DNA of 44,376 nt, the filler included, from Jimgerdemannia flammicorona (taxonomy: Eukaryota): the NCBI GenBank assembly GCA_003990765.1. It is 2 parts of 2 records of this genome, joined end to end, with 100 filler letters (N's around TTAATTAATTAA, not from the genome) between each part and the next. Parts side by side here need not be neighbours in the genome. Positions count along the whole stretch, not along the records: positions 22,243 to 44,376 come from RBNJ01001329.1; 1 more part is not named here. One strand, 5' to 3'. A program made the position numbers and the translations under genes. The notes below the pieces were generated by a model. The model saw only the letters and a list, made by a program, of their open reading frames with translations. It was not told where the DNA came from and ran no database searches. Below, piece by piece: positions 22 through 37,215 of the stretch. The number at the start of each line of letters is the position of its first letter. Within the stretch, counting starts at the first letter, position 1.

Positions 22-15506
<15,485 letters not shown>

Positions 15507-19385: not shown

Positions 19386-20052
19386 CTACGCCGACGCCTC
19401 ATTCCACGCAATCACGGACATCATCCCCACGCCGACCGCCATCGCCACTAATTCCGTCACCATCTGCCTCGCATCCTTCTTGAACGCCCCCGTCACCGCA
19501 AGTAGTTCGGGGATCACCCCGACCGTTGCAATGTAAATAAACCCGCCGGCGGTGAAGGGGATGACCATGTCGCCCATGGTGACGCCCGTGCCGAGGAACC
19601 CGGCCGCGGCCTCTATGGCGTGGTCGTGGGGGTGGTGCAGCGAAGCTTCTTCGATGGCAATCCCCGCCAGGGTGCCCAAAAAGGCGCCGACAGCAGTGGA
19701 GAACTGGGCAAGCATGGCCTTCTGCTTGCTGAAGCCGGATTGGATGAGGATCGCGTAATCGCCAACCTCGTGCGGGATCTCGTGGAAGAAGACCGCTACG
19801 GCCGTCGTGGCACCCACACCGGGGGACGCGTAGAACGAGGCTGCCATAGCTAGGCCATCGGTGAAATTGTGGGTCGCGTCGGCGAAGAGATTCAGGTAGG
19901 CGGAGAGTTTGATCGTGCTGGTAGGTTCCGCGGAGGCAGCGGTGACGGGTTCAGTGGTGGGTTCGGCGGGCTCGGTGGGTTTCCGTTGGCGGAGGGTGGC
20001 GGAAGAGTCGCGAGCGTCGGGTTTGCGAGCAGCGGGGGTGTCGTGTTTATGT

Positions 20053-20112
<60 letters not shown>

Positions 20113-20507
20113 CCGTGCGCGTGGCCGTGCGCGTGGCCGTGGCTATGACCGTGGCCGTCGCCGCCGTTGAAGACACGCATGCCCTTATCCATAATGAAGA
20201 AGAAAGTCAGACCGATAAAAATTCCCATGCCTATGACGATGTTCTTCTTGTCGTCGACGACAATATGGGCGCTGTGGCTGTGGTTCTCGCCCAAGAAAGC
20301 GTGGGGAATGAGGTGCAGGAAGACATCGCCCAACAGACCGCCGACAGCGAAGGCGACGAGGGTGTTGAGGGAGGAGGTGTCAATATCGGGGGGGACAAAG
20401 TAGAGAAGGAGGTTTGGGAAGATTGAAATGTAGGCGGTGGCCAACAAGGAGTTGACGGCAGGGGAACCGGGAAAGAGGGAGGCGAAAACGGTCTGCTGGA
20501 GGGACAT
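19386..20507 (-). CDS. YKE4: ZIP family zinc transporter, ZIP7/Ke4/YKE4 subfamily, intronless
   Basis: AFAVGGLLGDVFLHLIPH, LNLFADATHNFTDGLA, FFHEIPHEVGDYAIL (HExPHExGD) and PFTAGGFIYIATVGVIPELL, plus a His-rich loop. First ATG is at 20507. Confidence 0.93.
20053..20112 (-). repeat. Coding hexanucleotide microsatellite (CCACGA)n giving an (HD)n tract in the ZIP His-rich loop
   Basis: About 10 copies of TCGTGG on the + strand; translation HGHAHGHAHGHDHDHDHD... Confidence 0.9.
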
Positions 20508-22142
20508 GGCGGGGAAATAGACTAAGGGAAGGATTATTGAAGCGATGGGCCTTTTAAATACGGACGGTGGCTCTGACAAACGCCAATTTCATTGTGGCTG
20601 AGTCAATTGTGTGCCACACTTATTGGATAAATGATCAAAAAGGCACTATCTAGATAACTTCGCCTCAAATCATCTCCATCGTGGCCTTTGTGTTTTATTT
20701 TTATATCGTGCCTCTCTCCCAATACTGCACCTAGTGAGAAACTATTATAACATGCCATCACATGCCTAACAAAATTCAGAAGTTGAGGTGTCCTCAGCAT
20801 TCTCTAATGTCAAATATATATATATATCAGAAACCTTTTCTTAAAAATAAACAGAAAAGCTTTGTGAATGAATAACCTTTTTCCACTCGTTTTTTAGAGC
20901 ATGGTGTCCTCTCCTGATCGGGCGAAGCCCATGTAACCTCCGATGTGTGGTCAAAGACGGATTGTTCTGGCAGTGAATACTCCACATCAACCAACTCCTT
21001 ATAGTTATTCACAGACAACTGAATCAAGTTCTGTATGTACGAAATGCCAAATATGAGCAAAGGTCAAGTATCAACGCATCTGACTATATAAACGTTCTCG
21101 AAATGCACAGCGCTTACCCTGAGTCGCAACATACATCTTGCCATTCTCACAAAATCGGATGGGAAAGACGACGATATTGAGACCGGCACTTGAAACCTCT
21201 CCACTTCTGCACATCCATACCAGCCACTGGTAAGATACACCACGGAAAAAATTCGATAGCAGAACCGAGAGCTCAGAATTCCACTACACGGGATCTTTGT
21301 CAACAGCTTGATAGCAGAGTCTTGCTGGTGTTCGCGAGCCTGGAGCACAACTCGGGCAAGCGCTACATGACAATCTCGTAACAGAACTTGGAGTCCAACT
21401 CCATCAGTAACCATTTTTGTCACCTTGCCAGGAGAGGCTCCGATGTTAGCCGCAGCACCAAATTCGCAAGTCCGGTCCGAGAGAATGCATCTGCATGTTA
21501 TTTAGAAAAGCAGATCAAATCGTCGGCCAAAGCTTTATATGAAACGGAATTTCAAAATATAATTAACATACTGTGAAGAGCCAATCACAACTGGCACCTT
21601 TTACTTGAGGCAACACCGTAGTTTTGGAAGATGTCTTCAGACTAGACGACGATAGTGCAGATGCTCTTCTAAACCTGGATGCCCGACATTCAACTTCCCC
21701 ACTGGTAAATATGGTAAGAATAAGGAACTTTTTTTTTTTTAAAAAAAAAAAAGCTATAGTAAATACACTGAAGAAAGAAGATACCTACTAGTGCATATCA
21801 ACAATATTGTAGATGCATTTGTACAGATGAACATTGAAATTGATATCTACGTCCCTTTCCGAGTTCACTCTCGTCGTAAACCCTGATTCAATCATTTCGA
21901 CACTAGATGATTGGTTAGCAAGTACATTTCAGCCAAAAACAGGTGTGATATGTACTCACGTATATCTTAATAGATCTAATATGTGTTGCGTATCTGGATC
22001 ATCACAATCAGACATGTCGACGGTCGACGCTGAGCTTGCTTTTGGCACTGTCAGTCTTCTTTTGGCATTACATTTTGCCGTATTCTCAGCAAGACGTTTC
22101 ACAACCCCTTCATAACCCTTTCTTTTTTTTTTTTTTTTTTTT

Positions 22143-22242
22143 NNNNNNNNNNNNNNNNNNNNNNNNNNNNNNNNNNNNNNNNNNNNTTAATTAATTAANN
22201 NNNNNNNNNNNNNNNNNNNNNNNNNNNNNNNNNNNNNNNNNN
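22143..22242. other. Artificial assembly gap/contig linker: 44 N + TTAATTAATTAA + 44 N
   Basis: Symmetric 100-nt block with a 12-mer that places stops in all six frames. Base composition changes abruptly across it. Confidence 0.95.
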
Positions 22243-22323
22243 TTTTTTTAAAAAAAAAACATATTTTAATTTTTATATTATTTTAGACAATATACAAATG
22301 TGAATTTGTACTTTACTATATAT

Positions 22324-23750
22324 TGTGACGGACCAGAATATACTACCCGAATTATAACTTAGCCAGATAACACAAACAATTAGCATACTTACTCAGTATG
22401 ATGTGACTTCCAGTGTATCATAGTTACTCATGCCCGCCACACTTATAATTAGCCAAGATACCAGATCAGGATTGTTTACCTGTGTCCTGAGGACACACTC
22501 ATGTCCTGCGGATACACTCATGTCTTGCGGACACACTCATGTCCTGTGGACACACCTGTACCCAGAGGACACACCCAAACATTACCAAAGATAGCAAATC
22601 TATACTTAGCCGCATAGTAACCAGATAGCAACCAACTTGTATAAATTACCCCAGAGACAAGAGTGAATAAACCTCAGTCCGAATTGAAGTGCAAACCAAA
22701 GAAGCCTCTAAAGATTGAGCAATTGGTCCCCTTATTCCCACTCTGGTTCACTTTCTGATACAAAGAAGAGTTTGTTACGTTTTTGGTTCGCTTGCTAGAT
22801 AAGCCTGAAGATTTGCCACCTAAGTTCAAGGAGAACTTCGCTGCCTTTTGAAAGAACCCGCTGCTTAAAAGAATAAGCCACGCTATTGGTATGCTTGCCA
22901 GATAAGCCTGAAGAACCCTATCCTCTGCCTTCCCAAGAAAGCCGCCTTGCTCAAGTCAGTTTCTGATGCAACTTCGCAGTGATCCATTCGTGCAAACGAA
23001 GCCAGTCTTTGACGTAACTTTGCTAAGAGACCCTTTCCCAAAGAACGCCACCAGTTGTTTGTATTCCGAGTAGAAGCCCGCCGATTCAGGAAGAATCCGC
23101 GCCATCCTGTTTCCCAGTTAGAGCCCGCCGATTCAGGAAGAATCCGCGTCACCCGCTGTTTCTAAGCTATCTGCCATATTCCCAGTTGAAGCCGCTGATT
23201 TAGAAGAGTCCGCGCCATCCGAGTTAATTCCCAGTTAAGCTGCCGTTTTCAAGAAGCCAGCCAAATCTGCATCGTCCACCACCTTCAAGTTATCCGCATT
23301 CCCAGTGAGCTCGGTATAGAAGAATCCATGCCATATGATTCTCAGTGAGCCAAATCGAGTTTTCCGCCGAATTATCAGAACATTTGCATAAGGAACCCAC
23401 CATGCTACATGGAGATCATCGCACTACACAAGATCCCTATGCAGAAATCGCCCGCCACCCAAGAAGGAGAACCGCTAAATTGCCAGACCGTCACACACAA
23501 GGAGATCGTTGCGCTATACAGAAATTGTGCCATTCCCAGTTGACCCAAGAAAGAAAAGACATACAAATTGCCACTACACCCAAGAACCTGTCCCAAAAAG
23601 GAAACCACTCACACAGTATCCAGATCTTGACTATTATACCGCTAAACACCAAGAACATTTTGTTGCTTTTAACAAAGTAACTGGGGGCTCAAGCCAAACT
23701 ATATCAACCCCCAACCTTGTAATTTGCCTCCATTGAGCCGGCACGTTACA
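22324..23750 (+). repeat. 5' LTR (1427 bp)
   Basis: Begins TGTGACGG, ends CACGTTACA; colinear with 31343-32769. Internal 19-bp repeats at 22483-22555 and GCCGATTCAGGAAGAATCCGCG-type repeats at about 23070-23335. Confidence 0.96.
22640..22680 (+). promoter_or_regulatory. LTR TATA box (TATAAA 22640-22645) and AATAAA (22666-22671) module
   Basis: TTGTATAAAT.ACCC...AGAGTGAATAAACCTCAGTC is present in both LTRs (one substitution) and recurs reverse-complemented at about 34379-34421 in the solo LTR. Confidence 0.7.
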
Positions 23751-23752
23751 TT

Positions 23753-23767
23753 TGGGGGCTCAACTGG
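23753..23767 (+). promoter_or_regulatory. Primer binding site, tRNA-Pro type (TGGGGGCTCAACTGG)
   Basis: Starts 2 nt after the 5' LTR. TGGGGGCTC is the start of the tRNA-Pro PBS used by gammaretroviruses. The host tRNA was not checked. Confidence 0.7.
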
Positions 23768-24317
23768 AAAGATTTCAAAATTGACGTGACTTTTTAGCTC
23801 ACAAGAACCCACAGTCAAACTGGATACATTTGATACAACACCAATCTCTGCCACTACAGGAGAACCAGTCATCACTAGCATTTGGACAGGAAGAGAAGTA
23901 ATTACCTCAAGACTTGCCAACTATCCAGCATCAGAAGGATCCCAACCAGAAGCAGGAGGCAGTACAGCCCAAAATTCTCAACCAGACCAACCAGATCAAC
24001 CAGACAATACAGGCAGCCCTGCTAGAGATTTCGGAGAACTTGCACAAGAACTAGAAGATCTTATCACACGAACCCAATACTTCACAGCCAGACACCCCAC
24101 ACCAGTCCCACTAATCTCACCAATAGAACCCCTACCACAACCCCTTGCAGAACCAAAAGTAGCTCCTACAAGAATACCTAGGCCTATTTCACCTCACCCA
24201 AGGACCAGAACACCATCTTCAAGATACCCAAGCACCCCCATTTCTAGTAACAGTTCAGAAAGTGAATCAGAATCAGAATCTGAACCAGAACCAGAATCAG
24301 AAGAAAGTGACAAAGAA

Positions 24318-25508
24318 ATGGCCACCTCACTGCCAATCTTTGCAGGATACCCGGAGGAAGACCCCAGAGAATTCCTTGATAGAATTGAAGAAATCGCAGC
24401 CTTGAGGAATCTCTCAGATGAAAGAAAAATCGCTATTTATAAAGCCCAGCTCAGGGAACCAGCCAGAGGAATTTTCCACCGAACAGCAAACAACCCAGAT
24501 TCAGAATTAGTAAGACAGATACAAGTAGCAATCTCTAATGAGCTAGAATATCAGGCCATGGTCTACTGGCTCATAGAAAAGTATGCAGGAAATGAAACCC
24601 GCCATAAGGCTCAAGAATCCATCATGGGAATGAAGATGAATCTTGGAGAACCGCCCAGAGCCTTCTTCACAAGAATCCAGAAGAGAATGCATTCTGCTGG
24701 GTTCAATGCCACCAACCAGGACATCATAGGTCCAATGACCTTCATGAATGGAATTCCCCTGAATATTGCCCAGCATGTCCGCACCCTAGGCATCAGAAGG
24801 TCTGAAGAACAAGTAGATGCGGCCCAAGGATTCTTTGATGTCAGACAAGGAACCACCTGGAGCGATCATAATAAGAAAGAAGATAAAGAAGATATCCTGG
24901 TCAAGGCCCTGCAAGGACTCCTTCAAGGACAAGAAAGATCCGAGAAAAGAAGGCCAGCCAAGGAAGGAAAGAAGGACAGAAGTGAAATCCAAGACCTCAG
25001 CTCCAAGTTAGACTGATTGGTTGGACAGATCGAAAAACTCACCATACACGAAAATTGGGACTACCAAAACCACAGAGGATACCCACCACAGAGGAGCCAA
25101 GGTTATCCACCAAGAGATAACAGAAATTACCAGCAAGAAGAAAGAAGGTATCCTGCCCGAGACAAAGCCCAAGTCCAATGCTTCTATTGTGGACAATTCG
25201 GACACTATGCTACTGAATGTGATAACAAAAGAAGTGACCGAAGAGATTCAGAACCACCAAACCGAAGGAATGACACTCAGCACAAGAAGACTGAAGCCCA
25301 TCTTGTTGAAGATTTCGAGGAAGCAAGCAATAGTGAAGACTACAGTGACCTAGACTTGTATCCTACCAAGGTTACAACCCGGAAAACAGTCTATCCAGCA
25401 GAGAAGAGAAAGAGACCTGTAGGAAGACCATCCAGGAACATCAGCAGAAGAATTATCCAAGAAGAGGACGAAGAACATGAGGAGGAACAAGTAGAAACAC
25501 CTCCCTGA
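24318..25508 (+). pseudogene. Retrotransposon gag with CCHC zinc knuckle
   Basis: LPIFAGYPEEDPREFL capsid-like start and CFYCGQFGHYATEC knuckle; in-frame TGA at 25014. Confidence 0.85.
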
Positions 25509-25829
25509 ACCCCCTCACCTTTTGTTCCCGAGACAAACAAGTTGCCATCAGAAGATGAGGAAATGGAACAAGAAGAACAGGAATCTACTGCCCCAAAGCC
25601 CGAGAAGAAGTACACTCCGAAAACCATGCCTAGGGACATTTACAATGAAGCCTGGCAGAAGATTCAAGAAGCCAAGATGGAAGTCCCCCTCCTACAGTTC
25701 TTGCAATTGATACCAGCTGGAGTCTGAAACAAATTGCTGAAAACCACTAGGTCTAGCACTGGCCGAGTTCCAATCCCACAGCAAGAACCAGTTCCCATCC
25801 CTGTCCAGACAGCTGAAAGACATGTCAGC

Positions 25830-26190
25830 ACCTACTTACATAGAGACATTGGAGGACAAAAAGCGAAAATCCTCATAGACACAGGAGCAGCTATCTGTGT
25901 CATTGCCAAACGATTCTTGGACACCCTCCAATGGCCCATTGATGGACCATCCAACCTCAGCATTATAGTAGCAGATGGAGCCTGAACTCAACCCCTTGGA
26001 GAAGTACAAAATATCACCATCTCCCTTGGACACATTCAGTTCTCCATTCCCAAAGCTGTTGTCACTGAAGCTGTCACCTATGACATGATTCTTGGTACCA
26101 ACTGGATGAAGGAAATGAATGCAGTTGTTGATATCGGCCAACAAGTACTCAAGTTTGACTACCGAGGCAAGAAGTACCGAGTTAAGGTGA
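25830..26190 (+). pseudogene. Retrotransposon aspartic protease
   Basis: ILIDTGAAICVI and YDMILGTNWM motifs in the gag frame; in-frame TGA at 25983. Confidence 0.9.
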
Positions 26191-27506
26191 CCAGCTATGA
26201 GCAATTGAAGAAGAAAAAGAAGGTCACTATTCAGGAAGAATATGCCAGCAGTGAAGAATCCACCACAGAAGAAGAGGAAGAATCTGAAGATAGAAATGAT
26301 CCCAGACTCAATCCCCAAATCAATCTGGTGGATGACAGACCGGAAGACAATGTGTGGGCCAAGAACACTATGCCCATCATCATTGGAGCCATTGCAGGAG
26401 AAGTCAAAGGATGCCCTACATGTCTCAAAAGACACAAGTGTCCTGAGCACTCCTCCAAGATCATAGGAACAAGGAAATCACCTGGCACAGCCTGCCCAGA
26501 GTACAGAAGGAAGAAGAAGAGATGCAGATATGTTCCAGAAACCCCTGCAACTGAAGCTGCAGAAGTACAAGCAATTTGGGGTCAAGAATCATCCGAGAAA
26601 GAAGAAACTTCAGACCAAGAAGTTCCTGAACAAGAAGCACCCGATGAAGAAGAAGTCCCCGAACTCATCCCCTGGGATGACCCTCACTGGACACCACCTG
26701 AAGACAATGACCCCTGGAATACAGAGGAAGGACCCAGTACCATCACCATTATCTCCAAGAAAGAAATCCACCAGGAGAAAGCTTTCCGGCTAAGGAGATG
26801 TCTACATCAAATGGTCTTCTACTCTCCCCGAGACTACTGTTATCAGTGTCACCTGTTGGACCAACAAGAAAGACAGAGACCCCAGAGACCGGAACCCCCA
26901 ACTACTCTTGCACAGTCTACCACCTTTCAAGAAGTCACCACAAGGTTACAAAGTTGATTTAGAGGACAAGACTTCTTTACCAAAACAGAAATATATCCCC
27001 TGTCTACCCTTCTACCCACCTATGATCAAGATGGGTACCAATTCCCAAGACAACAGGAAATAAACAGCCGGGAACACCATTTCCGAGTAATGGGATATTG
27101 CAACCATGGGAGACACCCTGACTGCTGAGACTGCCGACATCAGAAGATTTATCTCAGTCATGATGTTGCAGTGCACACCTTGAAGAAAGGAGACAACCGA
27201 GGTCAGATCCGAAAAAGCCAGATCCAAAAAAGCCAGACCAAGAAGTCAGAAAGAAGAACCCTCAAGATCTACGATTTGGGAGAAGACATCCTAGCTCTCA
27301 TCAGACATGCAACCCACCAAGGATGGGCAGAAGATGCCACCAACTTCATGGAAGCCCTTGACCCTATAGGAAGAAGGGGAATCAATTACCTCTGAGACCC
27401 CTCTACTGGAGCCAGATGGCCACACCTCAACCTCAGAGCTTGGAGGCTCTCTGCCAGTGGAGCTTCAGTCTTAGGAAAGCCCGAACTTAGCAAGGATATT
27501 GCCCAG

Positions 27507-27908
27507 TATGCCCTGCTGCACCCCAAGGCCAAACCCCCGACCAAAGCCCACCCAGAGGATGTAGGATATGATCTTCACAGCCTGGAGGATGAATCTATCA
27601 AGCCTGGAAAAACCTTCATGGTCAGAACTGAACTAGCCATGCAGCCACCTCAAGGAGCCTATATTCAACTGACCTCAAGGTCCGGACTTGCCAGACAAGG
27701 GATAACTGTAGAAGGAGGAACCATTGACCCTGGATATACAGGCGAAATCAAGGTCATCCTACACAACAGCAGTGCAGAATGGCACCGAATCATTAGAGGA
27801 CAGAAGATTGCCCAAGCAGTCTTCATGAAGGTCAAGACCCGACAGTTACAGGAGGTCCCTGAACTAACTGAAGGAACAAGGCAAGCCAAGGGATTTGGAA
27901 GTTCAGAT
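27507..27908 (+). pseudogene. dUTPase domain within the retrotransposon polyprotein
   Basis: All five trimeric dUTPase motifs in order with no internal stop: VGYDL, SRSGLA, GTIDPGYTGEIKV, KIAQAV, RQAKGFGSS. Confidence 0.93.
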
Positions 27909-28315
27909 AGAAAAGAGGTACATCTCCTTCAAGTCAACTACCTCAAGAGGAATGTTCCCCAGCAAGTATACCGGCAACCAGTCAGACTGCACAAGAATCT
28001 CATCCTGGAGCCCAGAGAACAAACTACCTTTCAAATATTTGCACCACCTGACCCCAGGAACCTTTTCTTCGAACCCAAGGTAGATATCTCACACCTGGAC
28101 ATAGAGGGACACATATTCCCTGATAAGATGAACCCAGTATACTCCCAAGCAACCAACCAAAGTTGGGAGACCATCATCTTGCCAAAAGGAACCATCATAG
28201 GACATCTGGTGCCTTTTATCAACCGAACTCATAGGGAAGTTTATGAACTAAACCTATCGGGAAATGGCAAAAGGTCCCAGAAGAAAGGAAAGGCCCCTCT
28301 GCGACCCAGGAGACA

Positions 28316-29731
28316 GTGAAGCCTTCCACCAACATTGGAGAAGAATTGACACCTCAACAACAGCAACAACTAGTAGAACTTCTCAACAAATATCAAGATA
28401 TCTTCACCACCAATTATGGCAACCTGCCATACAACCCATCATATTACCACAGCATAAATACAGGAAGTGCAACACCCATCCGGCAGAAACCCTATAGAAT
28501 ACCCCATCTTGAAAACATTCGAAAAAGAGCATATCCAAGAACTCTTAGACAATGAAGTCATCCGACCCTCTACCAGCCCCTGGCCAGCCCTATACTTATT
28601 GTACCAAAGAAAGGAGGATGGAGACTCTGTGTAGATTACAGAAAACTCAACTCAGTCACTAAAAAGGATGCTTATCCTTTGCCCAGAATCGATGACCTTT
28701 TGGATCAGTTACAAGATGCCAGATACTTCAGCAGTATGGACCTCTTCACAGGATTCCATGAGATCCCCATAGACCCCAAGGACATTCAAAAGACAGCCTT
28801 CCTTGCTCTAGGAAAACTGTTTGAATATCTCCGAATGCCCTTTGGACTCTGCAATGCACCCCCCACCTTCCAGAGGATGATGAATTCGGTCTATACTCCC
28901 TTGATCCACTACTGTCTGATTGTATACATGGATGATTCCAACATCTATTCAGCAAATTTCGAAGAACACCTGCACCACCTAGAGGAATTCTTCAAGCTCA
29001 CCCGCAAGAATCATTTGAGATTGAATGCAAAGAAATGCTACTTCGGAAAACAGAAACTTGAATTCTTAGGATTCATGGTTTCAAAAGAAGGAACTCATGC
29101 AGACCCAAAGAAAACTGAGAAGATCAACAATTGGCCAGTGCCCAAGACTCCAAAGGAAACACTATCATTCTTGATGCCAGTATCCTACTATATAAGGTTT
29201 ATCAAAGATTTTGACCAAATCACTGCCCCAATCCGAATCCTTCTCAAGAAAGGAGTGCCATTCAAATGGACAGAATTACAAGGAAAAGCCTTCAGAGAAC
29301 TCAAGAACCGCATGACTACAGCACCAATCCTTGTGCGCCCCAACCTACAGAAGCCATTCATCTTGTATACAGATGCTTCCAAAGATGGCCTAGGAGCAGT
29401 TCTAGCCCAAGAAGGACCTGACCAACAGCACCATGTTGTGATAACTTATGCAAGCAGAGCCACCAACCAGTAGCAGATGAACTATGGTAGCACCAAACTG
29501 GAATGCCTTGCAGTCATATGGGCGGTCACCCTGTTCAAGCATTACCTCATCGGAAAAAGATTCACCCTGATCACAGACCATGCAGCCCTCAACTGGCTAT
29601 TCAACTGCAAGGAACCTGCCGGAATCCTAGCCCGCTGGATCCTTATCCTTTAGGATTACAAAATCATCATCATCCACAAAGCAGGGAAAGCCCACAACAA
29701 TATTGATGTACTTTCTCACCAGCCCCAATGA
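28316..29731 (+). pseudogene. Reverse transcriptase - RNase H
   Basis: WRLCVDYRKLN, LPRIDDLLD, MPFGLCNAPPTFQR, YMDD, LYTDASKDGLGAVL and ITDHAAL. Frameshifts near 28520-28590 and TAG stops at 29471 and about 29651. Confidence 0.93.
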
Positions 29732-30807
29732 ATCAGAGGAAGGGTGTCCCGAGGAACCACACCCTAAAGGAAGCTCCTCAGACTATCAAAGAACAAGAAA
29801 ATCTCATCCAAAAAGAACATCAGAAAGCTTACCAAGGACAGACAAGCATAGAAGACAGGATTCGAAAACAATATCAACATTGGCCCTACCTCAGAACTCA
29901 AGTCCGGGACATCATCCAGAAATGTGACATCTGTCAGAAGTACCAAGGGAAGAAGAACTATCAAGCCCCTCTGCAACCAATTCCCCCACCCACTCACATC
30001 TTTCAAAGATGGGGAGTAGACGTAATTGGACCTCTACCAGTTACACCAAGAAGAAACAAATACATTCTTATATTTGTAGAACATCTGACCAAGTGGCCCG
30101 AGGCTTTCCCAATAGAAATCACAGACGCCTTAACCATTGTAGGCCTCCTCCACAGACTCACACTCAGATATGGACTCCCAGAAGAACTTATCTCTGACCG
30201 AGGCACAGAATTCATCAACAACATAATCATCAGTTATGCCTGAATTCACAAGATCCACCTCAAATGGACTACATCATACCACCCTCAGACCAATGGTATG
30301 ACAGAAAGGATGAACCAGACCATCAAGAAAGGACTTGCCTGAGTCAATCCTACCAATTGGGACCTCTGCTTACCTGAGATCCTATGGGAAATTTGGAATA
30401 CCCCTGCTACATCCACCAAACAAAAGCCATTCAAAATGATGTTTGCTAAGAAAACCAGAACTGCTGACCATGAGAATCTTGGAGACCTCCTCAAGAAGGC
30501 AGAACAGTTACGGAATCAAGCCCAAGGACAGATTATCAAAGCCCAGGAAAGGCAAAAGAAGTACTATAACCAAAAACAGAAGGATCAGAAGATCAAGATT
30601 GGAGATCAAGTCCTAGTTTGGAGAAGCATGATTGAGACAAACTTTGCCACCAAACTAGAACCGAAATAGGAAGGACCTTATCTTGTACAAAACATCAGAG
30701 GAACCAGCATCTATTTAAGAAGCATGGATGGATGAACCTTGAGAACACCAATACACATCAATCGCCTCAAGATATACCTCTTCTCACACCATGAACCAAA
30801 GAATTGA
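29728..30807 (+). pseudogene. Integrase (HHCC-like, DDE core, GPY motif; no chromodomain)
   Basis: H..Y..CDIC, WGVDVIGPLP, LISDRGTEF, YHPQTNGMTER and K*EGPY; stops at 30241, 30340, 30667 and 30733. Confidence 0.92.
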
Positions 30808-31303
30808 CAACTGCCTCCAAACTCTTGTCCTCAGTTCCCTCCAAGCCCTACCAGTTCCCATGCCTCAGTTCTAGGATCCCAATGGAACATATCTTCAGAA
30901 AATCTGTGTTCATCAAGAGAACCTCACTTTGGCCGAGAGGCTACTCCAGGTCCACCAGCTACAGGCATATTACGCAATTGGAGAACAATTGCAAAATCTT
31001 CCTCTCCCAGACCTAGCCTATATCCAAAACACCACTGGCCTGAACAGAAGGAACACCACTGCTGTAGACAGACTATATACAATATACAAACGAAATCCTT
31101 CCGCCTTAATCCAGGCTCAGTTTTCCCTGAATGACCTCCAGAGGATGACACTGCCCACCTACCTCAGCATCATTCACCAAGTAGAGATTCTATTTCCTGA
31201 GGAAGAAGAAGAGCCCCTGGAATGGAGTGACCGTAGCTCAGATGATGATGATGGAACAGGTATAGATGCAGAAGCCGCTTATGCCTATTGGGATGACAAC
31301 TGA
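30791..31303 (+). pseudogene. Additional retroelement ORF (ORF3), ~170 codons, unknown function, acidic C-terminus
   Basis: ATG at 30791 is in frame with the 30929 ORF, with one TAG at 30872. Similar to the ORF inside the solo LTR at 34714-35637. Confidence 0.7.
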
Positions 31304-31330
31304 AGAATAGTCTGGGACAGACTACCCTTC

Positions 31331-31342
31331 AGTGAGGGCTGA
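31331..31342 (+). promoter_or_regulatory. Weak polypurine tract (AGTGAGGGCTGA) before the 3' LTR
   Basis: Located immediately 5' of the 3' LTR; only moderately purine-rich. Confidence 0.4.
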
Positions 31343-32769
31343 TGTGATGGACCAGAATGTACCACCCGAATTATAACTTAGCCAGATGACGCGAACAATT
31401 AGCATACTTACTTAGCATGATGTGACTTCTAGTATATCATAGTTACTCATGCCCGCCACACTTATAATTAGCCAAGACACCAGATCAGGATTGTTTACCT
31501 GTGTCCTGAGGACACACTCATGTCCTGCGGACACACTCATGTCCTGCAGACACACTCATGTCCTGTGGACACACCTGTACCCAGAGGACACACCCAAACA
31601 TTACCAAAGATAGCAAATCTATACTTAGCCACATAGTAACCAGATAGTAACCAACTTGTATAAATTACCCCAGAGACAAAAGTGAATAAACCTCAGTCCG
31701 AATTGAAGTACAAACCAAAGAAGCCTCTAAAGATTGAGCAATTGGTCCCCTTATTCCCACTCCGGTCCACTTTCCAATACAAAGAAGAGTTTGTTACGTT
31801 TTTGGTTCGCTTGCCAGATAAGCCTGAAGATTTGCCGCCTAAGTTCAAGGAGAACTTCGCCGCCTTTTGAAAGAACCTGCCGCTTAAAGGAATAAGCCGC
31901 GCTATTGGTATGCTTGCCAGATAAGCCTGAAGAACCCTATCCTCCACCTTCCCAAGAAAGCCACCTTGCTCAAGCCAGTTTCTGACGCAACTTCGCAGTG
32001 ATCCGTTCACGCAAATGAAGCCAGTCTTTGACATAACTTTGCCAAGAGACCCTTTCCCAAAGAACGCCACCAGTTGTTCATATTCCTAGTAGAAGCCTGC
32101 CGATTCAGGAAGAATCCATGCCATCCCATTTCCCAGTTAGAGCCCGCCGATTCAGGAAGAATCCGCATCACCCACCATTTCTAAACTATCTGCCGTATTC
32201 CCAGTTGAAGCTGCCAATTTAGAAGAGTCCGCGCCATCCGAGTTAATTCCCAGTTAAGCCACCGTTTTCAAGAAGCCCGCCAAATCTGCATCGTCCGCCA
32301 CCTTCAAGTTATCTGCATTCCCAGTGAGCCCGGTATAGAAGAATCCGCGCCATATGATTCCCAGTGAGCCAAATCGAGTTATCTACCAAATTATCAAAAC
32401 ATCTGCATAAGGAACCCGCCGTGCTACACGGAGATCATCATGCTACACAAGATCATCATGCAGAAATCGCCCGCCACCCAAGAAGGAGAACCGCTAAATT
32501 GCCAGACCGTCACGTACAAGGAAATTGTCATGCTATACAGAAATTGTGCCATTCCCAGTTGACCCAAGAAGGAAAAGACATACAAATTGCCGCTACACCC
32601 AAGAACCTGTCCCAAAAAGGAAACCACTCACACAGTATCCAGATCTTGACTATTATACCGCTAAACACTAAGAACATTTTGTTGCTTTTAACAAAGTAAC
32701 TGGGGGCTCAAGCCAAACTACATCAACCCCCAACCTTGTAATTTGCCTCCATTGAGCCGGCATGTTACA
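31343..32769 (+). repeat. 3' LTR (1427 bp)
   Basis: Begins TGTGATGG, ends CATGTTACA; same length as the 5' LTR. Confidence 0.96.
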
Positions 32770-33448
32770 ATATCTAAAAGTGGTAGAGAGATTCCAACTA
32801 ATATGTATGTTTCATTATATTGAATTAAAACAACTTGAGAAATCGCCAGTATTCAAGTTAAAAAAATATGAATCTATGGTCAAGCATTCAAAAGATACAT
32901 CATGTATTGTTACCTGGAAGAAATTTATAAATAATGAGTAAACTAGTGATGTGTGTTTTATAGTTGAAAATAGATTCATATATACATACTCATTCTTGAT
33001 ATCCAATCGTTGTAACTATTATAATGCCATGTTTGCAAGTGGAATAATAGAGAAAATATCAAAATATAATCAAAAACAAGATATTGTAGTAAACGACTTC
33101 AAATATAACACAGTATTTTCAATATTGGAATTTTTATATACTGATCAGTTAGATGATATAGAATTTACTATAGATGATTGGAAAGATATATATAGAATTG
33201 CAGATAAATATAACATTATAAGTTTATGTATATTGGCTGAGAAACAATATAACCAATTATTTACAATTAATAATGTTGTAAAAGAATTATTTACATTTGC
33301 ATTTAATTATCCAGCACTCTGTGATATTTGTATAGATTATATAGAGATATATAAAATACATTTTAATATAATATTGATATTGGAATATATAAATTGTAGG
33401 CAATATTATAGTTTAATGATTCAGATTTATAAAATTATATTAAATTGA
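32770..33448 (+). pseudogene. BTB/POZ-domain protein (SPOP-like), split by the LTR element; upstream exon piece at 22287-22323
   Basis: TSDVCFIVENRFIY..FLISNRCNYYNAMF...VFSILEFLYTD...ADKYNIISLC. The frame is open from 32771 to a TAA at 32939 and joins 22288-22323 in frame across the TSD. Confidence 0.8.
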
Positions 33449-33530
33449 ATATTGTAATTTAATATTGAATTTTTTTTTAAATAAACAAAAAAAAAATAAA
33501 TACACTATTTGATTATATATATGTATATAT

Positions 33531-35843
33531 TGTGGCATGTAGTTTGTATCTCTAGTTGCTTCTTTCATGGCCCAATGTGTCACTTGGTGAAGCGCGCGAT
33601 AGATATGAGTGTGTTCGCAATGGTTACGGATTGATAGTCATGTGATCGGTGTGTTCGATTCATATGATAATTGATAGCAGGAGTTCGATTGTTCGTTGGC
33701 TCAATTGTTCAATGGCAAAGACAGCGATTATTTATAATACTGGTGGGTATCTTGACGGCAGACTTGAATTTAAAGCGGTCAATTTGAAGCAGGTGATGGT
33801 CTTGACTTTAAGCGGTTTGTGGTATAGTAGGGAATCGTTCGGGTCAACAGTTCAGTCGAATGTTCGTTCTTAACTTGAGGGTGGGTTCTGGCAGTCGTTC
33901 GTTTACTGGCGGTCTTGTTCTAGTATCCTTGGGTTCCTTGGCTGGGTTTCTGGGCCTTGAATCTCGAATGGCGGTCCGAATGGTGGTTGGTTCCAAATGC
34001 ATGATGGTTGGGTCGAATGTACAACGGTTGGGTCGAATGTACGATGGTTGGGCTGAATGTACGATAGTTGGGCTGGCGGGATCTCGGCGGTGGTTGGTGG
34101 TTTTTTGTATGGCTTTCCTTTAGCGGCGGGTCTTTAAACTGAATTTGAACGGCTTTTCGTGCGGCTTTCCTTAGCGGCGGGTCTTTAAACTGAACTGAAT
34201 GGCTTTTCGTGTGGCTTTCCTTAGCTGCGAATCTTGAACATTTTCTGTGGTAAGAGAAAATTCTTTAACTCGAACCTTGAGCGATCGTTGCTCTAGTTAT
34301 CTTGTTCTCAGAATTTATCCGGTCTCTTAGAGGCAGTGAGGTTTCTCTATAATTCTTTTTTACTTTTAAACACAAACTGACTGAGGTTTATTCACTCTAA
34401 GATATAGGGTTATTTATACAAATTTGCTAGCTATGGGGGGGGGCTAAGGTATATTACATTGTGGTGGTTTAATTGCTGAATATGGGTGCGACAATTGTTT
34501 GCACCGAATTGGGATAAGATGAGTGCTGGTGCTGAATATGGATGTTGTGGGTGGTATCGCTGAAAACAGGTGCGACAATTGTTTGTGCCGAATGGGGATA
34601 AGATGAGTGCTAGTGCTGGATATGGATGTTATGGGTGGTATTGCTGAAAACGGGTGTTGCTGACTTGCTGACAAATGTTGGCTGACCGGACTGAGGAAAC
34701 AGACATTGGATCACTAAATGGTAAAGTACCCTTCATCAGTAATCCAATCATCTTGCTGGGTTGTGACTTCTTCATCCCATTCTTCAAAGGGTGGGAGCGC
34801 TGACCAGGAGGTGAGGGGGTAGAATTGTGGCCAATCATCTTCGATGACATTCTCCAACCCTTGGACTGCTTGAAGGCAGACAGAGGATTGGTAGATTCTT
34901 TATTCCTCCTCTTCTTCTTCCTCAGATCCTTCAGTTTCTGTGTTGGTAGGGACTTCTGGGACTTCTTGATTTGGTTCCCAAATGATGAAGTGCGAATTGT
35001 AGCTGACAGGGTAGTGAGTAGTTGGGGTTGCTCCAACAGGTGTTGTAATAGTAATGGGTGGTCCTTCGAAGATTTCCATGAGACTCATTAGATGACCTTG
35101 ATGGTTGTCTTGGAGTAGAGTGGTGTGAAAGCCTGGTTGAGTGGGCTCAGTTTGTTGGCTTCCTATAGTGACCCGGTTACTACCAATAGAGTCGGCTACT
35201 TCTGATTCTATCCAGTCTGCATCTTCAGTTGAGAGATGAGCAAGACTTCCAGCAGTCACTCCTTGTAAGTGTGCTATAGCCCAGAGAATATGGCGGAAGA
35301 TTTGGTAGACACGGAGGGCTCTCTAGATTAGCCGGCTGGTGGTTAACATTTCGGCAATGAGGTCTTCCTGGTCACCTTCTTGGGTTTCATTATGAAGGTG
35401 GTGTCCAATTTTGTAATTATGCCAGAGGGTCATTCGTTCAGTGGTATCTTTGAGCTATTGGGTCATTATGTACTGATAATTGATGAAGTGTCTAAGATCC
35501 TCGGTGTAGAAGTTCAGATGTTCAGAGGTGTCTGGGCGCCAAATAGCCTTCTTGATAGCTTCAAAGATTAGAGTCTTTGGGCCAGGCAAGGGGGAAGAGC
35601 GGCGGGAGGTCTGGTTGGAGTGGCGGATAGGAGGCATTGTGTAGTGGGTACTTGTTCTTTGGTGCTGATTCCTGAGGCAGAGTATGGTTCTTTAAATAAT
35701 CTAGTCTTCCTTTTGGCTTGGATTATCATTGCTCCTTTTGGGGTGATCACCTAATGGGTCAGGCTGTCTATTTGATTGTCATGCCATTATGTTGTCTGAT
35801 CTTAGCAGTCACCGGTACTCCATTGTCAATTGCGTACATCACA
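33531..35843 (-). mobile_element. Solo LTR (2313 bp) of a related retrotransposon family, reverse orientation
   Basis: On the - strand it starts TGTGATG and ends CATGCCACA, and is flanked by ATAT on both sides. It shares the TATA/AATAAA block with the 1427-bp LTR. Internal 84-bp (34473-34656), ~50-bp (34111-34226) and 18-bp (34003-34075) tandem repeats. Confidence 0.8.
34714..35637 (-). pseudogene. ORF inside the solo LTR, probable homologue of retroelement ORF3
   Basis: Single frame with stops at 35455, 35323 and 34900: ...TLWHNYKIGHHLH...RALRVYQIFRHILWAIAHLQGVTAGSLAHLS... followed by an acidic Trp-rich tail. Confidence 0.6.
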
Positions 35844-36564
35844 ATATATATATAAATAACTTTACCAATGGTTTAAATTCTGAAATAAGTGTGTATATTT
35901 TCTTAATAACTTATATGATATTATAAATTTTCCAAGATATGTCAATCTATTATCATGTTATATATGTGCATTAATTGTCATCCAATCACATAAAATATAA
36001 TAATTGTGAATTCAAAAATTTTATACTTTGGGGTATGGGAGTATATATTATATGAGCATTTAATGCCATCTAATGATTTAAAGTATAATAATCATGAATT
36101 TAAGATTTTATACCTTGTAATAAGTATTGTAATTAGAGCGTACACGATTATATATTATGTACATGTCTATATTATCTATATAAAATTGTGAATTTAATAT
36201 TTTTATACTTTGATATATGTAGTATAATTAGTATACGAATTATGTATGCACATTTATTACTATCTAATAGCATAGTATTATGGTATAATTTTACTTATTA
36301 ATATGTGTCATACATATTATGTGAATAATCTGAACCTATATGTTTATATTTTACAATATATTTCAGTATTGATCACATGATGTAAATGTTTATATTTTAG
36401 ATATTGGAATTTATATTTTCTGTATTTACAATAGTTATCATATTTTACAAACTGCTGATAACAATCACATGATATATACTTTTACATTTTATATTTTGAA
36501 ATTTATATTTTCAATCTTTATGATGAAAACTGTTCTTGTATAAATCACATGATATAAATTTTAC

Positions 36565-37215
36565 CATCCAACCATTCAAAGCTTAAAAATCTTAAATTCA
36601 TAATTATTATACTTTGATGTAGACAATATGATTGGAGTGCACACAAATATATTTCATGTGCATATCAGTGACAGCCAATCGTTTGAAGCTTAAAAATCAT
36701 GAATTCACAATTATTATACTTTGAGATTGAATATATTATTGGTGCATAAATTACTCATATTATATGAGTGATTATTGCCAGCCAACCATTCAAAGCTTAA
36801 AAATCTTGAATTCACGATTATTATACTTTGATATGGAGAATATGATTGGAGTGTACACAAATATACTTTGTGTACATGTCTGTAACAACCAATCATTTAA
36901 AGCTTAAAAATCTTGAATTCATGATTATTATACTTTGAGATTGAACATATTATTGGTGCATAAATTGCTTATATATATTATATATATAGTTATTGCTATC
37001 CAATCATTCAAAGCTTAAAAATCTTGAATTCACAATTATTATACTTTAAACTATACACTATGTTTGGAGTACACACAAATATACCTCACGTGCATATCTG
37101 TGATAGCCAATCATTCAAAGCTTAAAAATCTTGAATTCAAGATTATTATACTTTGAATGATATACTATGATTGGTACATAAATTATATATGCGTATTTAT
37201 TGCCAGCCAATCACT
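36565..37215. repeat. AT-rich tandem array, ~6 units of ~107-110 bp with alternating A/B subtypes (~215-bp dimer)
   Basis: Core CAATCATTCAAAGCTTAAAAATCTTGAATTCACAATTATTATACTTTGA near 36570, 36678, 36785, 36891, 37001 and 37110; degenerate copies near 36006-36210. Confidence 0.9.

Follow-up and report, generated by a model that had tools for sequence, protein, structure and literature searches.

Evidence for a conserved accessory gene inside the U3 region of a solo long terminal repeat in Jimgerdemannia flammicorona, with a probable relative outside the repeat in a neighbouring Ty3/gypsy-type retrotransposon

Can a retrotransposon's long terminal repeat (LTR) be the carrier of a protein-coding gene? 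Protein-coding genes within U3 are a textbook trait of a few complex retroviruses. As far as we are aware, no such genes have been described as a feature of LTR retrotransposons, and an exact-phrase search of open-access full text returned retrotransposon accessory genes only between the LTRs, a result that leaves the absence of other arrangements unproven. The question is raised by a stretch of 44,376 nt from Jimgerdemannia flammicorona (GenBank assembly GCA_003990765.1), referred to here as the window. Its right-hand piece, positions 22,243 to 44,376 from record RBNJ01001329.1, holds a Ty3/gypsy-type retrotransposon, element 1, and a shorter repeat unit, unit 2. Each contains an open reading frame (ORF), ORF1 in element 1 and ORF2 in unit 2, that is the last sense-strand gene before the LTR promoter. 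We consider it well supported, with a probability of roughly 0.78, that unit 2 is a solo LTR carrying a conserved gene inside its U3, and probable that this gene and ORF1 are homologous.

The features of unit 2 are as follows.

33531-35843, minus strand: unit 2, 2313 bp, TGTGATG...CCACA with the end CATGCCACA; putative solo LTR of a family related to element 1
35638-35843, minus strand: start of the U3 of unit 2, 206 nt from the integrase-recognised end to the ORF2 ATG
34714-35637, minus strand: ORF2, 307 codons and a stop, interrupted at codons 61, 105 and 246 by in-frame stops and free of frameshifts
34459-34656, minus strand: tandem repeat in U3, two copies of 84-86 nt between ORF2 and the TATA box
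34379-34434, minus strand: LTR core, with TATAAAT at 34418-34412 and, 20 nt later, AATAAA at 34392-34387, marking the U3/R border

An initial annotation, made from the sequence alone, had described a 2.3-kb TG...CA unit with ATAT flanks and, within it, a decayed ORF (35637-34714) lying upstream of the TATA box and hence in U3. This description was borne out, with the unit confirmed at 33531-35843, a 307-codon frame broken by three stops, a distance of about 300 nt from the ORF2 stop to TATAAAT and, in related copies, a purine tract abutting 35843 as the polypurine tract (PPT) of element 1 abuts its 3′ LTR. The first seven nucleotides of unit 2, TGTGATG at 35843-35837, are those of the 3′ LTR of element 1 (7/7), and its last, ...CATGCCACA, can be set beside the end of the element 1 LTR (LTR1), ...GCATGTTACA. 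The 56-nt core of unit 2 is 80% identical to 22625-22679 and 79% identical to 31644-31698, so that unit 2 contains an LTR1-related core in the same orientation as ORF2; it is the only similarity at good E-values found by BLAST between the DNA of the two elements. Unit 2 is flanked by ATAT at 33527-33530 and 35844-35847, as element 1 likewise is, and in the window the 35843 end meets host DNA at a 4-bp duplication, which is what integrase would leave at an LTR end. No sequence resembling a primer-binding site (PBS) was found past the unit 2 end at 33531, and neither gag nor pol adjoins the unit.

The copies of the tandem repeat between ORF2 and the TATA box are 88% identical (family D8), or 86% over 115 nt. 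Further repeats occur as three copies of about 50 nt in the R/U5 of unit 2 (34095-34238), and LTR1 has repeat sets of its own at 31785-31933 and 32081-32353. These arrays may be binding sites.

To place the outer end of unit 2, related copies were available from two soil-metagenome runs, X1 and X2, each of which shares 5% of the stretch's words, a higher share being found in no public run; they were the only runs listed, and none was of RNA. Both were aligned to 33300-36050 at an identity of at least 80%. Run X2 placed 190 contigs on unit 2, and five of them extend beyond 35843 with one agreed sequence, TCTGCCCCTTGCAAAATTAGAGCC on the plus strand (agreement 1). Read on the strand of the element, the extension ends in ...AAGGGGCAGA right before TGTGATG, a purine tract. 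The junction in these family-2 copies is GGGCAGA|TGTGATG and that in element 1 is GGGCTGA|TGTGATG (31336-31349), which are identical at 13 of 14 positions, or at 6 of 7 for the part within the purine tract alone. The outer end of unit 2 is therefore a homologue of a PPT/LTR junction, and because a purine tract precedes 35843 in related copies, 35843 is taken as the true start of U3. The initial annotation had allowed for LTRs that start downstream of ORF2; the evidence points the opposite way, with the purine tract abutting 35843 and a 13/14 junction. We regard it as very probable, on these sequence comparisons, that 33531-35843 is a solo LTR with ORF2 within its U3.

The summed depth of the X2 contigs along the unit was as follows.

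34772-35875 (ORF2 and the 206 nt upstream of it): 55-159
The first 206 nt, up to 35843: 55-123
Past 35876: 0
34220-34495 (TATA block): 205-259, the highest
Rest of unit 2: 0-17

ORF2 and the 206 nt before it fall within the 80% identity limit, and most of the non-coding U3 downstream of ORF2 and of R/U5 falls outside it; parts of the unit without X2 cover, which include much of 33531-34219, were given no weight. Summed depths are not copy numbers, and LTRs of the element 1 type, 80% alike in the TATA block, would also map there. One contig (record 7) spans the end of ORF2 and the downstream U3, 34538-34961, at 89% likeness. Another (record 12) runs 11 nt beyond 35843 along the AT-rich flank, followed by 79 unaligned letters, and may represent a second insertion at a similar target.

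Is ORF2 a gene? Three of 467 candidates proved to be relatives of ORF2, of which one is intact, with 325 aa and 69% identity over 97% of the query, and the homologues have sense codons at all three positions at which ORF2 has a stop. A profile search over 1.84 billion representatives gave nine matches, with divergent relatives of 214-342 aa. The four divergent members are P0013, P0014 (start MPP/MPA kept), P0015 and P0018. Alignment A3 took P0012-P0015 and P0018, and excluded the fragments P0016 and P0017 (40 and 48 aa) and P0019, an 846-aa repeat protein that matches the low-complexity linker only. The metagenome copies were also informative. One X2 contig (279 nt, 90% alike) has nine listed differences within ORF2 codons 4-32, the list being the best-supported rows and thus a sample rather than a count; six are synonymous, one is a Ser/Thr exchange and two fall in one codon and give the residue found in P0004. 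Contigs from both X1 and X2 have a sense codon at the third ORF2 stop of the window, and one X2 contig reads through the terminal stop. As judged by this comparison ORF2 is a real, conserved gene, about 290-340 aa long when intact and inactivated in the window copy, and purifying selection is shown to act on it.

More distant relatives were sought with two profiles. The close ORF2 profile, A1, gave 63 pattern matches among metagenome contigs, 34 among viral contigs and 57 among genome contigs, none of which was confirmed. The divergent profile, A4, found L001, a metagenome contig of 1535 bp with an intact ORF2-type gene of 292 aa, which forms a distant branch at about 30% protein identity. A second candidate, L002 (10001-10141), the only one from genome contigs, was rejected as a false positive: the match arose through the search pattern DTPDQWLQ and lies within a 585-aa gene resembling ATP-dependent DNA ligase in an archaeal metagenome-assembled genome. 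In L001, stretches weakly resembling the start of LTR1 lie on both sides of the gene, at nt 17-90 and 1344-1400, the former being the best of about 290 windows against the LTR1 PPT and start (score 37; mean 21.7, standard deviation (sd) 5.2). Direct repeats also surround the gene, one of 33 nt at 82% (170-202 and 1481-1513) and one of 19 nt at 84% (258-276 and 1336-1354). Against unit 2 or element 1 the flanks of L001 score z 0.3-1.9.

Element 1, with which unit 2 is compared, comprises the following.

22324-32769, plus strand: element 1, a Ty3/gypsy-type LTR retrotransposon
22324-23750, plus strand: 5′ LTR, TGTGAC...TTACA, with ATAT before it at 22320-22323
23751-30807, plus strand: internal region encoding gag, protease, dUTPase, reverse transcriptase (RT), RNase H and integrase
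30791-31303, plus strand: ORF1, 170 codons, with ATG at 30791, stop at 31301-31303 and an in-frame TAG at 30872-30874
31331-31342, plus strand: PPT, AGTGAGGGCTGA, abutting the 3′ LTR
31343-32769, plus strand: 3′ LTR, starting TGTGATG, with ATAT after it at 32770-32773

The two LTRs are 93.5% identical across 1427 nt, have the termini TGTGA(C/T)G...TTACA and carry ATAT flanks at both ends; comparing the pair set the 3′ LTR start at 31343 and hence the position of the PPT. The U3 of LTR1 runs for about 315 nt to TATAAAT, and the TATA/AATAAA block of the 3′ LTR is at 31644-31698. After the 5′ LTR, the sequence at the PBS position is TTTGGGGGCTCAAC. Pfam matches occur in the order zf-CCHC, Asp_protease_2, dUTPase, RVT_1, RT_RNaseH_2, Integrase_H2C2 and rve, and since RT and RNase H precede integrase and the LTRs form a pair, the element is of the Ty3/gypsy type. 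Its internal frames are interrupted by stops and frame changes. The dUTPase of pol (27396-28319, plus strand, Pfam E 1.9e-27), which lies between protease and RT, is a second non-canonical module of element 1.

The pol frame ends at 30807 with the residues ...RLKIYLFSHHEPKN and a stop. The initial annotation had placed an extra ORF between integrase and the PPT at 30791-31303, and these coordinates hold; the ORF1 ATG is set back 17 nt from where the pol frame ends and is in a different frame, so that the gene overlaps the pol stop. From the ORF1 stop to the start of the 3′ LTR there are 40 nt, the last 12 of which are the PPT. Five of 103 candidates are relatives of ORF1, including two full-length proteins of 171 and 172 aa (69-71% identity, 100% coverage), and the profile search retained 16 of 2818 candidates, with full-length members of 169-183 aa at 54-56% identity. 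Alignment A5 holds 15 sequences, the 65-aa fragments P0024 and P0028 being excluded. All full-length members start MNQR or MTQR and end ...AYxYW(D/N)D(D/N). By the same kind of comparison ORF1 is a real gene of about 171 aa when intact, and since its end and the PPT both precede the 3′ LTR, it is an ordinary internal accessory gene. A search with the ORF1 profile A2 gave 33 pattern matches among viral contigs, and none was confirmed. That both ORFs are conserved accessory genes, as first proposed, is upheld by their intact homologues and, for ORF2, by differences that are mostly synonymous.

Could this arrangement have arisen in some other way? That non-coding retrotransposon DNA happens to be open in these two frames might be argued from the lack of a Pfam family for either, the poor ORF2 model and the stops in both window copies. 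Conservation refutes this idea, to which we give almost no weight: full-length homologues, intact and 50-70% identical, stand on separate contigs, starts and ends are conserved, substitutions are mostly synonymous, and ORF2 continues for 307 codons without a frameshift. A more substantial alternative is that unit 2 is the 3′ end of an element that was truncated at its 5′ side or internally deleted, with ORF2 internal and a true LTR of about 1.2 kb starting from around 34714, in which case chance would have to account for TGTGATG at 35843 and for the ATAT flanks. In its favour, gene-carrying LTRs are far rarer than truncated elements, the distance from the ORF2 stop to TATA (about 300 nt) is near that of the LTR1 U3 (about 315 nt), and downstream of the L001 gene come purine runs and a TG start with a weak alignment to the LTR1 start (z 1.9, 16 of 300 shuffles as high). 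The break would, however, have had to fall exactly on a site that matches the LTR1 start at 7/7 and that follows a purine tract in other copies, which a random truncation fails to explain. By eye, TAGTGATCC... at the ORF2 stop could pass for a relic LTR start, but aligning the LTR1 start there yields a score of 13.5, less than the 17.5 that windows of the unit average; the best match of the LTR1 start in unit 2 is near 34468-34442, in a repeated ACTTAGCC-type motif. Nor does a 5′ LTR stub joined to a 3′ end fit, as no second copy of the first 206 nt follows ORF2 (the best score there is equalled or beaten by 146 of 300 shuffles). No remnant of pol was detected upstream of ORF2 by tblastx or Smith-Waterman comparison, and a resemblance seen there by eye was that of GRLDYLKN to GTSIYLRS. 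Truncation is very unlikely on this evidence.

It is also conceivable that the PPT normally lies downstream of ORF2 and that a second, upstream PPT and attachment site (att) was used once, plus-strand priming there producing a pair of extended LTRs that later recombined to the solo unit. The LTR1-start-like stretches on both sides of the L001 gene and the 19-nt repeat (84%) at 258 and 1336 would suit such a history. Against it, a downstream PPT/att is not recognisable in unit 2, X2 cover is even from ORF2 to 35843, and the L001 similarities are weak and come from a distant branch; we think the chance of it slim, if a little better than that of truncation. A duplicated PPT/att could nonetheless be a possible route by which the boundary jumped, the similarities in L001 not being significant alone. 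Several observations weigh against a gene-bearing solo LTR. The depth on the TATA block in X2 is about 2.5 times that on ORF2, as an internal ORF beside a shorter LTR would give. The five contigs that pass 35843 could be strain variants of a single locus and have only short loose ends, with a median of 9 nt and a consensus of 24 nt, and the R/U5 of unit 2 is scarcely covered (0-17). The ATAT duplication is weak evidence by itself, because both flanks of unit 2 are (TA)n-like. Finally, no full-length family-2 element was found, and the presence of ORF2 in both LTRs is deduced rather than observed.

Are ORF1 and ORF2 the same gene? The initial annotation had pointed to a pattern, YxIGxxL...RxYxI[FY]...A[LI]...LxxL/M, shared by the two and had read them as one accessory gene. 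The motif is indeed present in both, and the two proteins have a common architecture, with a long helix ending just past YxIGxxL, more helices and an acidic, Trp-bearing tail. The AlphaFold2 model of ORF1 is all helical, with a predicted local distance difference test score (pLDDT) of 70 and a predicted template modelling score (pTM) of 0.57; that of ORF2 is unreliable (pLDDT 35.6), with helices at 20-153. Profile-to-profile alignment with hhalign gave the following.

Shallow profiles: P 0.048, in a different register
With the divergent ORF2 members: P 0.064, with the register of the initial annotation on top, WHDYEIGHRL...RALRAHQIFRH against AHYAIGEQL...AADRLYTLYKR
Deeper ORF1 profile: P 0.028
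Deeper ORF1 profile without P0025, dropped for its frame-shifted tail: P 0.021, score 23.0, reversed control 13.9
Helical cores (P0004 40-160 and P0007 25-140; 9 and 14 rows): score 20.9, P 0.0068, with in-register extension to 89-99 columns at low stringency

For the cores, none of 400 column shuffles scored as high (mean 10.5, sd 2.0, maximum 19.0) and the reversed control gave 9.7. We judge distant homology between ORF1 and ORF2 reasonably probable; they would then be a single accessory gene on the two sides of a PPT/att boundary that has shifted. If the homology is real, the gene precedes the PPT in the family of element 1 and follows it in that of unit 2.

Much here also tells against homology. 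In BLASTP the two proteins match at E 7.5 or worse, which is not above chance; their similarity rises above shuffles only between the core profiles. At whole length (P 0.021-0.064) the observed score is matched by 6 of 200 column shuffles, since acidic tails can match by composition, and the core ranges were picked after the first alignment had been viewed. The global mode of hhalign gives P 0.38, and its probabilities are 0.9-5.6%. Neither profile search recovers the other family, with no ORF1-family member among the 9 ORF2-profile matches and no ORF2 member among the 16 ORF1-profile matches. Together with the length of ORF2, nearly twice that of ORF1, these results would suit an account in which ORF2 does lie in the U3 of a solo LTR but is unrelated to ORF1, the 3′ slot having been filled independently and ORF2 captured into U3. 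Accessory genes that look unrelated in one slot would not be unusual, as far as the available part of the Retrosat2 ORF0 report goes (PMC3485330). Set against this account are the register of 45-51 columns (YxIGxxL ... AxRxYxxF/Y), which comes top in the profile runs with a P that improves with depth, the cores that beat all 400 shuffles and the reversed control, the helix layout and acidic Trp tail in common, and the PPT/LTR junctions and promoter blocks that are homologous between the families. Independent filling of the slot seems to us doubtful, though it is the most serious of the alternatives. As a single gene, then, ORF1 and ORF2 are supported by their cores and by the proposed register, and left unsupported by BLASTP, the global mode and the database searches.

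How might such an arrangement work? We envisage two related Ty3/gypsy-type families, each with a small accessory gene at the 3′ end on the sense strand but on opposite sides of the PPT. In family 2 the PPT/LTR junction would lie 206 nt upstream of ORF2, placing the whole gene in U3; it would therefore be copied into both LTRs at each reverse transcription and be retained in solo LTRs. Unit 2 would be one such solo LTR, whose ORF2 acquired its three stops afterwards. ORF2 may form a self-contained cassette, possibly with its own promoter and with an mRNA end at the AATAAA of the LTR, about 320 nt past the stop. A TATA-like motif, TATTTAAA, lies at 35698-35691 on the minus strand, 61 nt before the ORF2 ATG, and comparable motifs precede the ATG of ORF1 and that of the L001 gene by 79-80 nt; such a motif is a short AT-rich word, which in element 1 falls inside integrase codons, and this speaks against its being a promoter. 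Expression of ORF2 would then be open to every LTR copy, whether solo or not, and the product would consist of a helical domain of 130-150 residues and, after it, an acidic tail that includes Trp and further aromatic residues.

What such a product does can be suggested only tentatively. It might be a trans-acting regulator of the promoter in its element's repeat-rich U3, comparable to spumavirus Tas, a role that we consider possible but far from probable; a host-factor antagonist or an accessory of particles or import are alternatives. The anti-silencing or trans-activating function put forward as a hypothesis in the initial annotation is likewise a guess. Pfam gave no family for either ORF at E up to 10, the Atlas had no family for them, and sequence searches of the PDB gave E 0.1 or worse, with no Sag, Nef or Tas/Bet entry. 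Fold searches with the ORF1 model likewise gave no Sag, Nef or Tas/Bet match, and their best values (Foldseek E 0.47, VIA Z 5.0) were below the noise bar for helical models. Among the sub-threshold rows are the helix-turn-helix proteins Spo0J (E 0.47), Mu C/Mor (Z 4.4/3.9), SopB (4.0) and KorB (3.7). Several of these weak rows are small DNA-binding helical domains, which offers a lead only.

The remainder of the window provides the setting. Host DNA in the right piece is AT-rich (18-34% G+C), and two islands within it at 42-49% are the retroelements. Element 1 and the solo LTR are separated by AT-rich DNA that contains a BTB/POZ frame (32942-33448, plus strand, Pfam E 5.3e-10), and both insertions are within or beside this BTB/POZ gene region. 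Just past the solo LTR, 35954-37192 (18-23% G+C) contains direct repeats spaced at 107-218 nt and inverted repeats of 40-59 nt that are 76-88% alike, a cluster that could be of the satellite type or resemble a miniature inverted-repeat transposable element. No further copies of either element were found within the window. The left piece has about 50% G+C and contains one gene for a dynein heavy chain (936-13584, minus strand) and another for a ZIP transporter (19386-20588); the ZIP frame, on the minus strand, includes a (GTCGTG)n-type repeat with a period of 12-18 nt at 20016-20165, which probably encodes a His/Asp-rich loop. Between the pieces is a run of N at 22143-22242, whose central TTAATTAATTAA linker provides stops in six frames. 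It joins pieces of differing composition, which may not be natural neighbours.

How does this arrangement compare with known systems? The closest likeness is to sag of mouse mammary tumour virus (MMTV), a superantigen gene in the U3 of a betaretroviral LTR. As with sag, ORF2 is a complete sense ORF located after the PPT and before the LTR promoter, which would be present in both LTRs and in solo LTRs. Unlike sag, ORF2 belongs to a gypsy-type element without env, has no sequence or family match to it, and encodes a helical product with an acidic tail and no sign of a membrane glycoprotein. The tas/bet genes of spumaviruses and lentiviral nef are accessory or regulatory genes at the 3′ end that reach into a long U3, and in foamy viruses a promoter in the upstream coding region drives a trans-activator whose activation region is acidic. 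Proposed likenesses to tas/bet are the TATA-like motif ahead of the ATG, the acidic aromatic tail and the U3 repeats. In contrast to these genes and to nef, ORF2 lies wholly rather than partly inside U3, and no homology to them was found. In position it partly resembles nef and the foamy-virus bel genes, without belonging to their families.

Among retrotransposons, the available portions of three reports provide a comparison. The accessory ORF0 of rice Retrosat2, RIRE3 and RIRE8 lies upstream of gag-pol, between the LTRs, and in Retrosat2 the ORF0 proteins have about 10% similarity, against more than 60% for the pol-containing ORF1 proteins; the LTRs, at 3.2 kb, are not reported there to carry the ORF (PMC3485330). 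The brtn gene of Botrytis Boty-like elements is also an accessory ORF between the LTRs, in antisense orientation (PMC8365987). As far as these accounts extend, both resemble ORF1 of element 1 in being lineage-restricted Ty3/gypsy accessory ORFs outside the LTR, and differ from ORF2, which sits inside one. In the subfamilies of Podospora crapaud, variation is concentrated in U3 upstream of the TATA box and the 3′ half of the LTR is conserved, the U3 being less than 200 bp and non-coding (PMC10787394). To the extent covered by that account, the families of element 1 and unit 2 are alike in sharing the TATA block and LTR termini and differing in U3, though unlike crapaud the U3 of unit 2 is about 1.4 kb and bears a gene.

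A gene in U3 makes a solo LTR a potential gene copy, beyond a relic of a promoter. The neighbouring families offer a natural comparison, in which the same slot holds a gene outside the LTR in one and inside it in the other, and this opens two testable questions, how LTR boundaries shift and what roles such accessory proteins have. More speculatively, this might be a gypsy lineage in which the LTR has become a gene carrier, with the PPT/att boundary now upstream of an older 3′ gene; under its own promoter and with the polyA signal of the LTR, that gene would be doubled at each insertion, persist as an expressible unit in each solo LTR and act in trans on the U3 of its family or against host silencing. 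If this were true, gene dosage would scale with the number of LTRs rather than with that of intact elements, and the regulation known from complex retroviruses would have a parallel in retrotransposons, one that persists after the element itself is gone.

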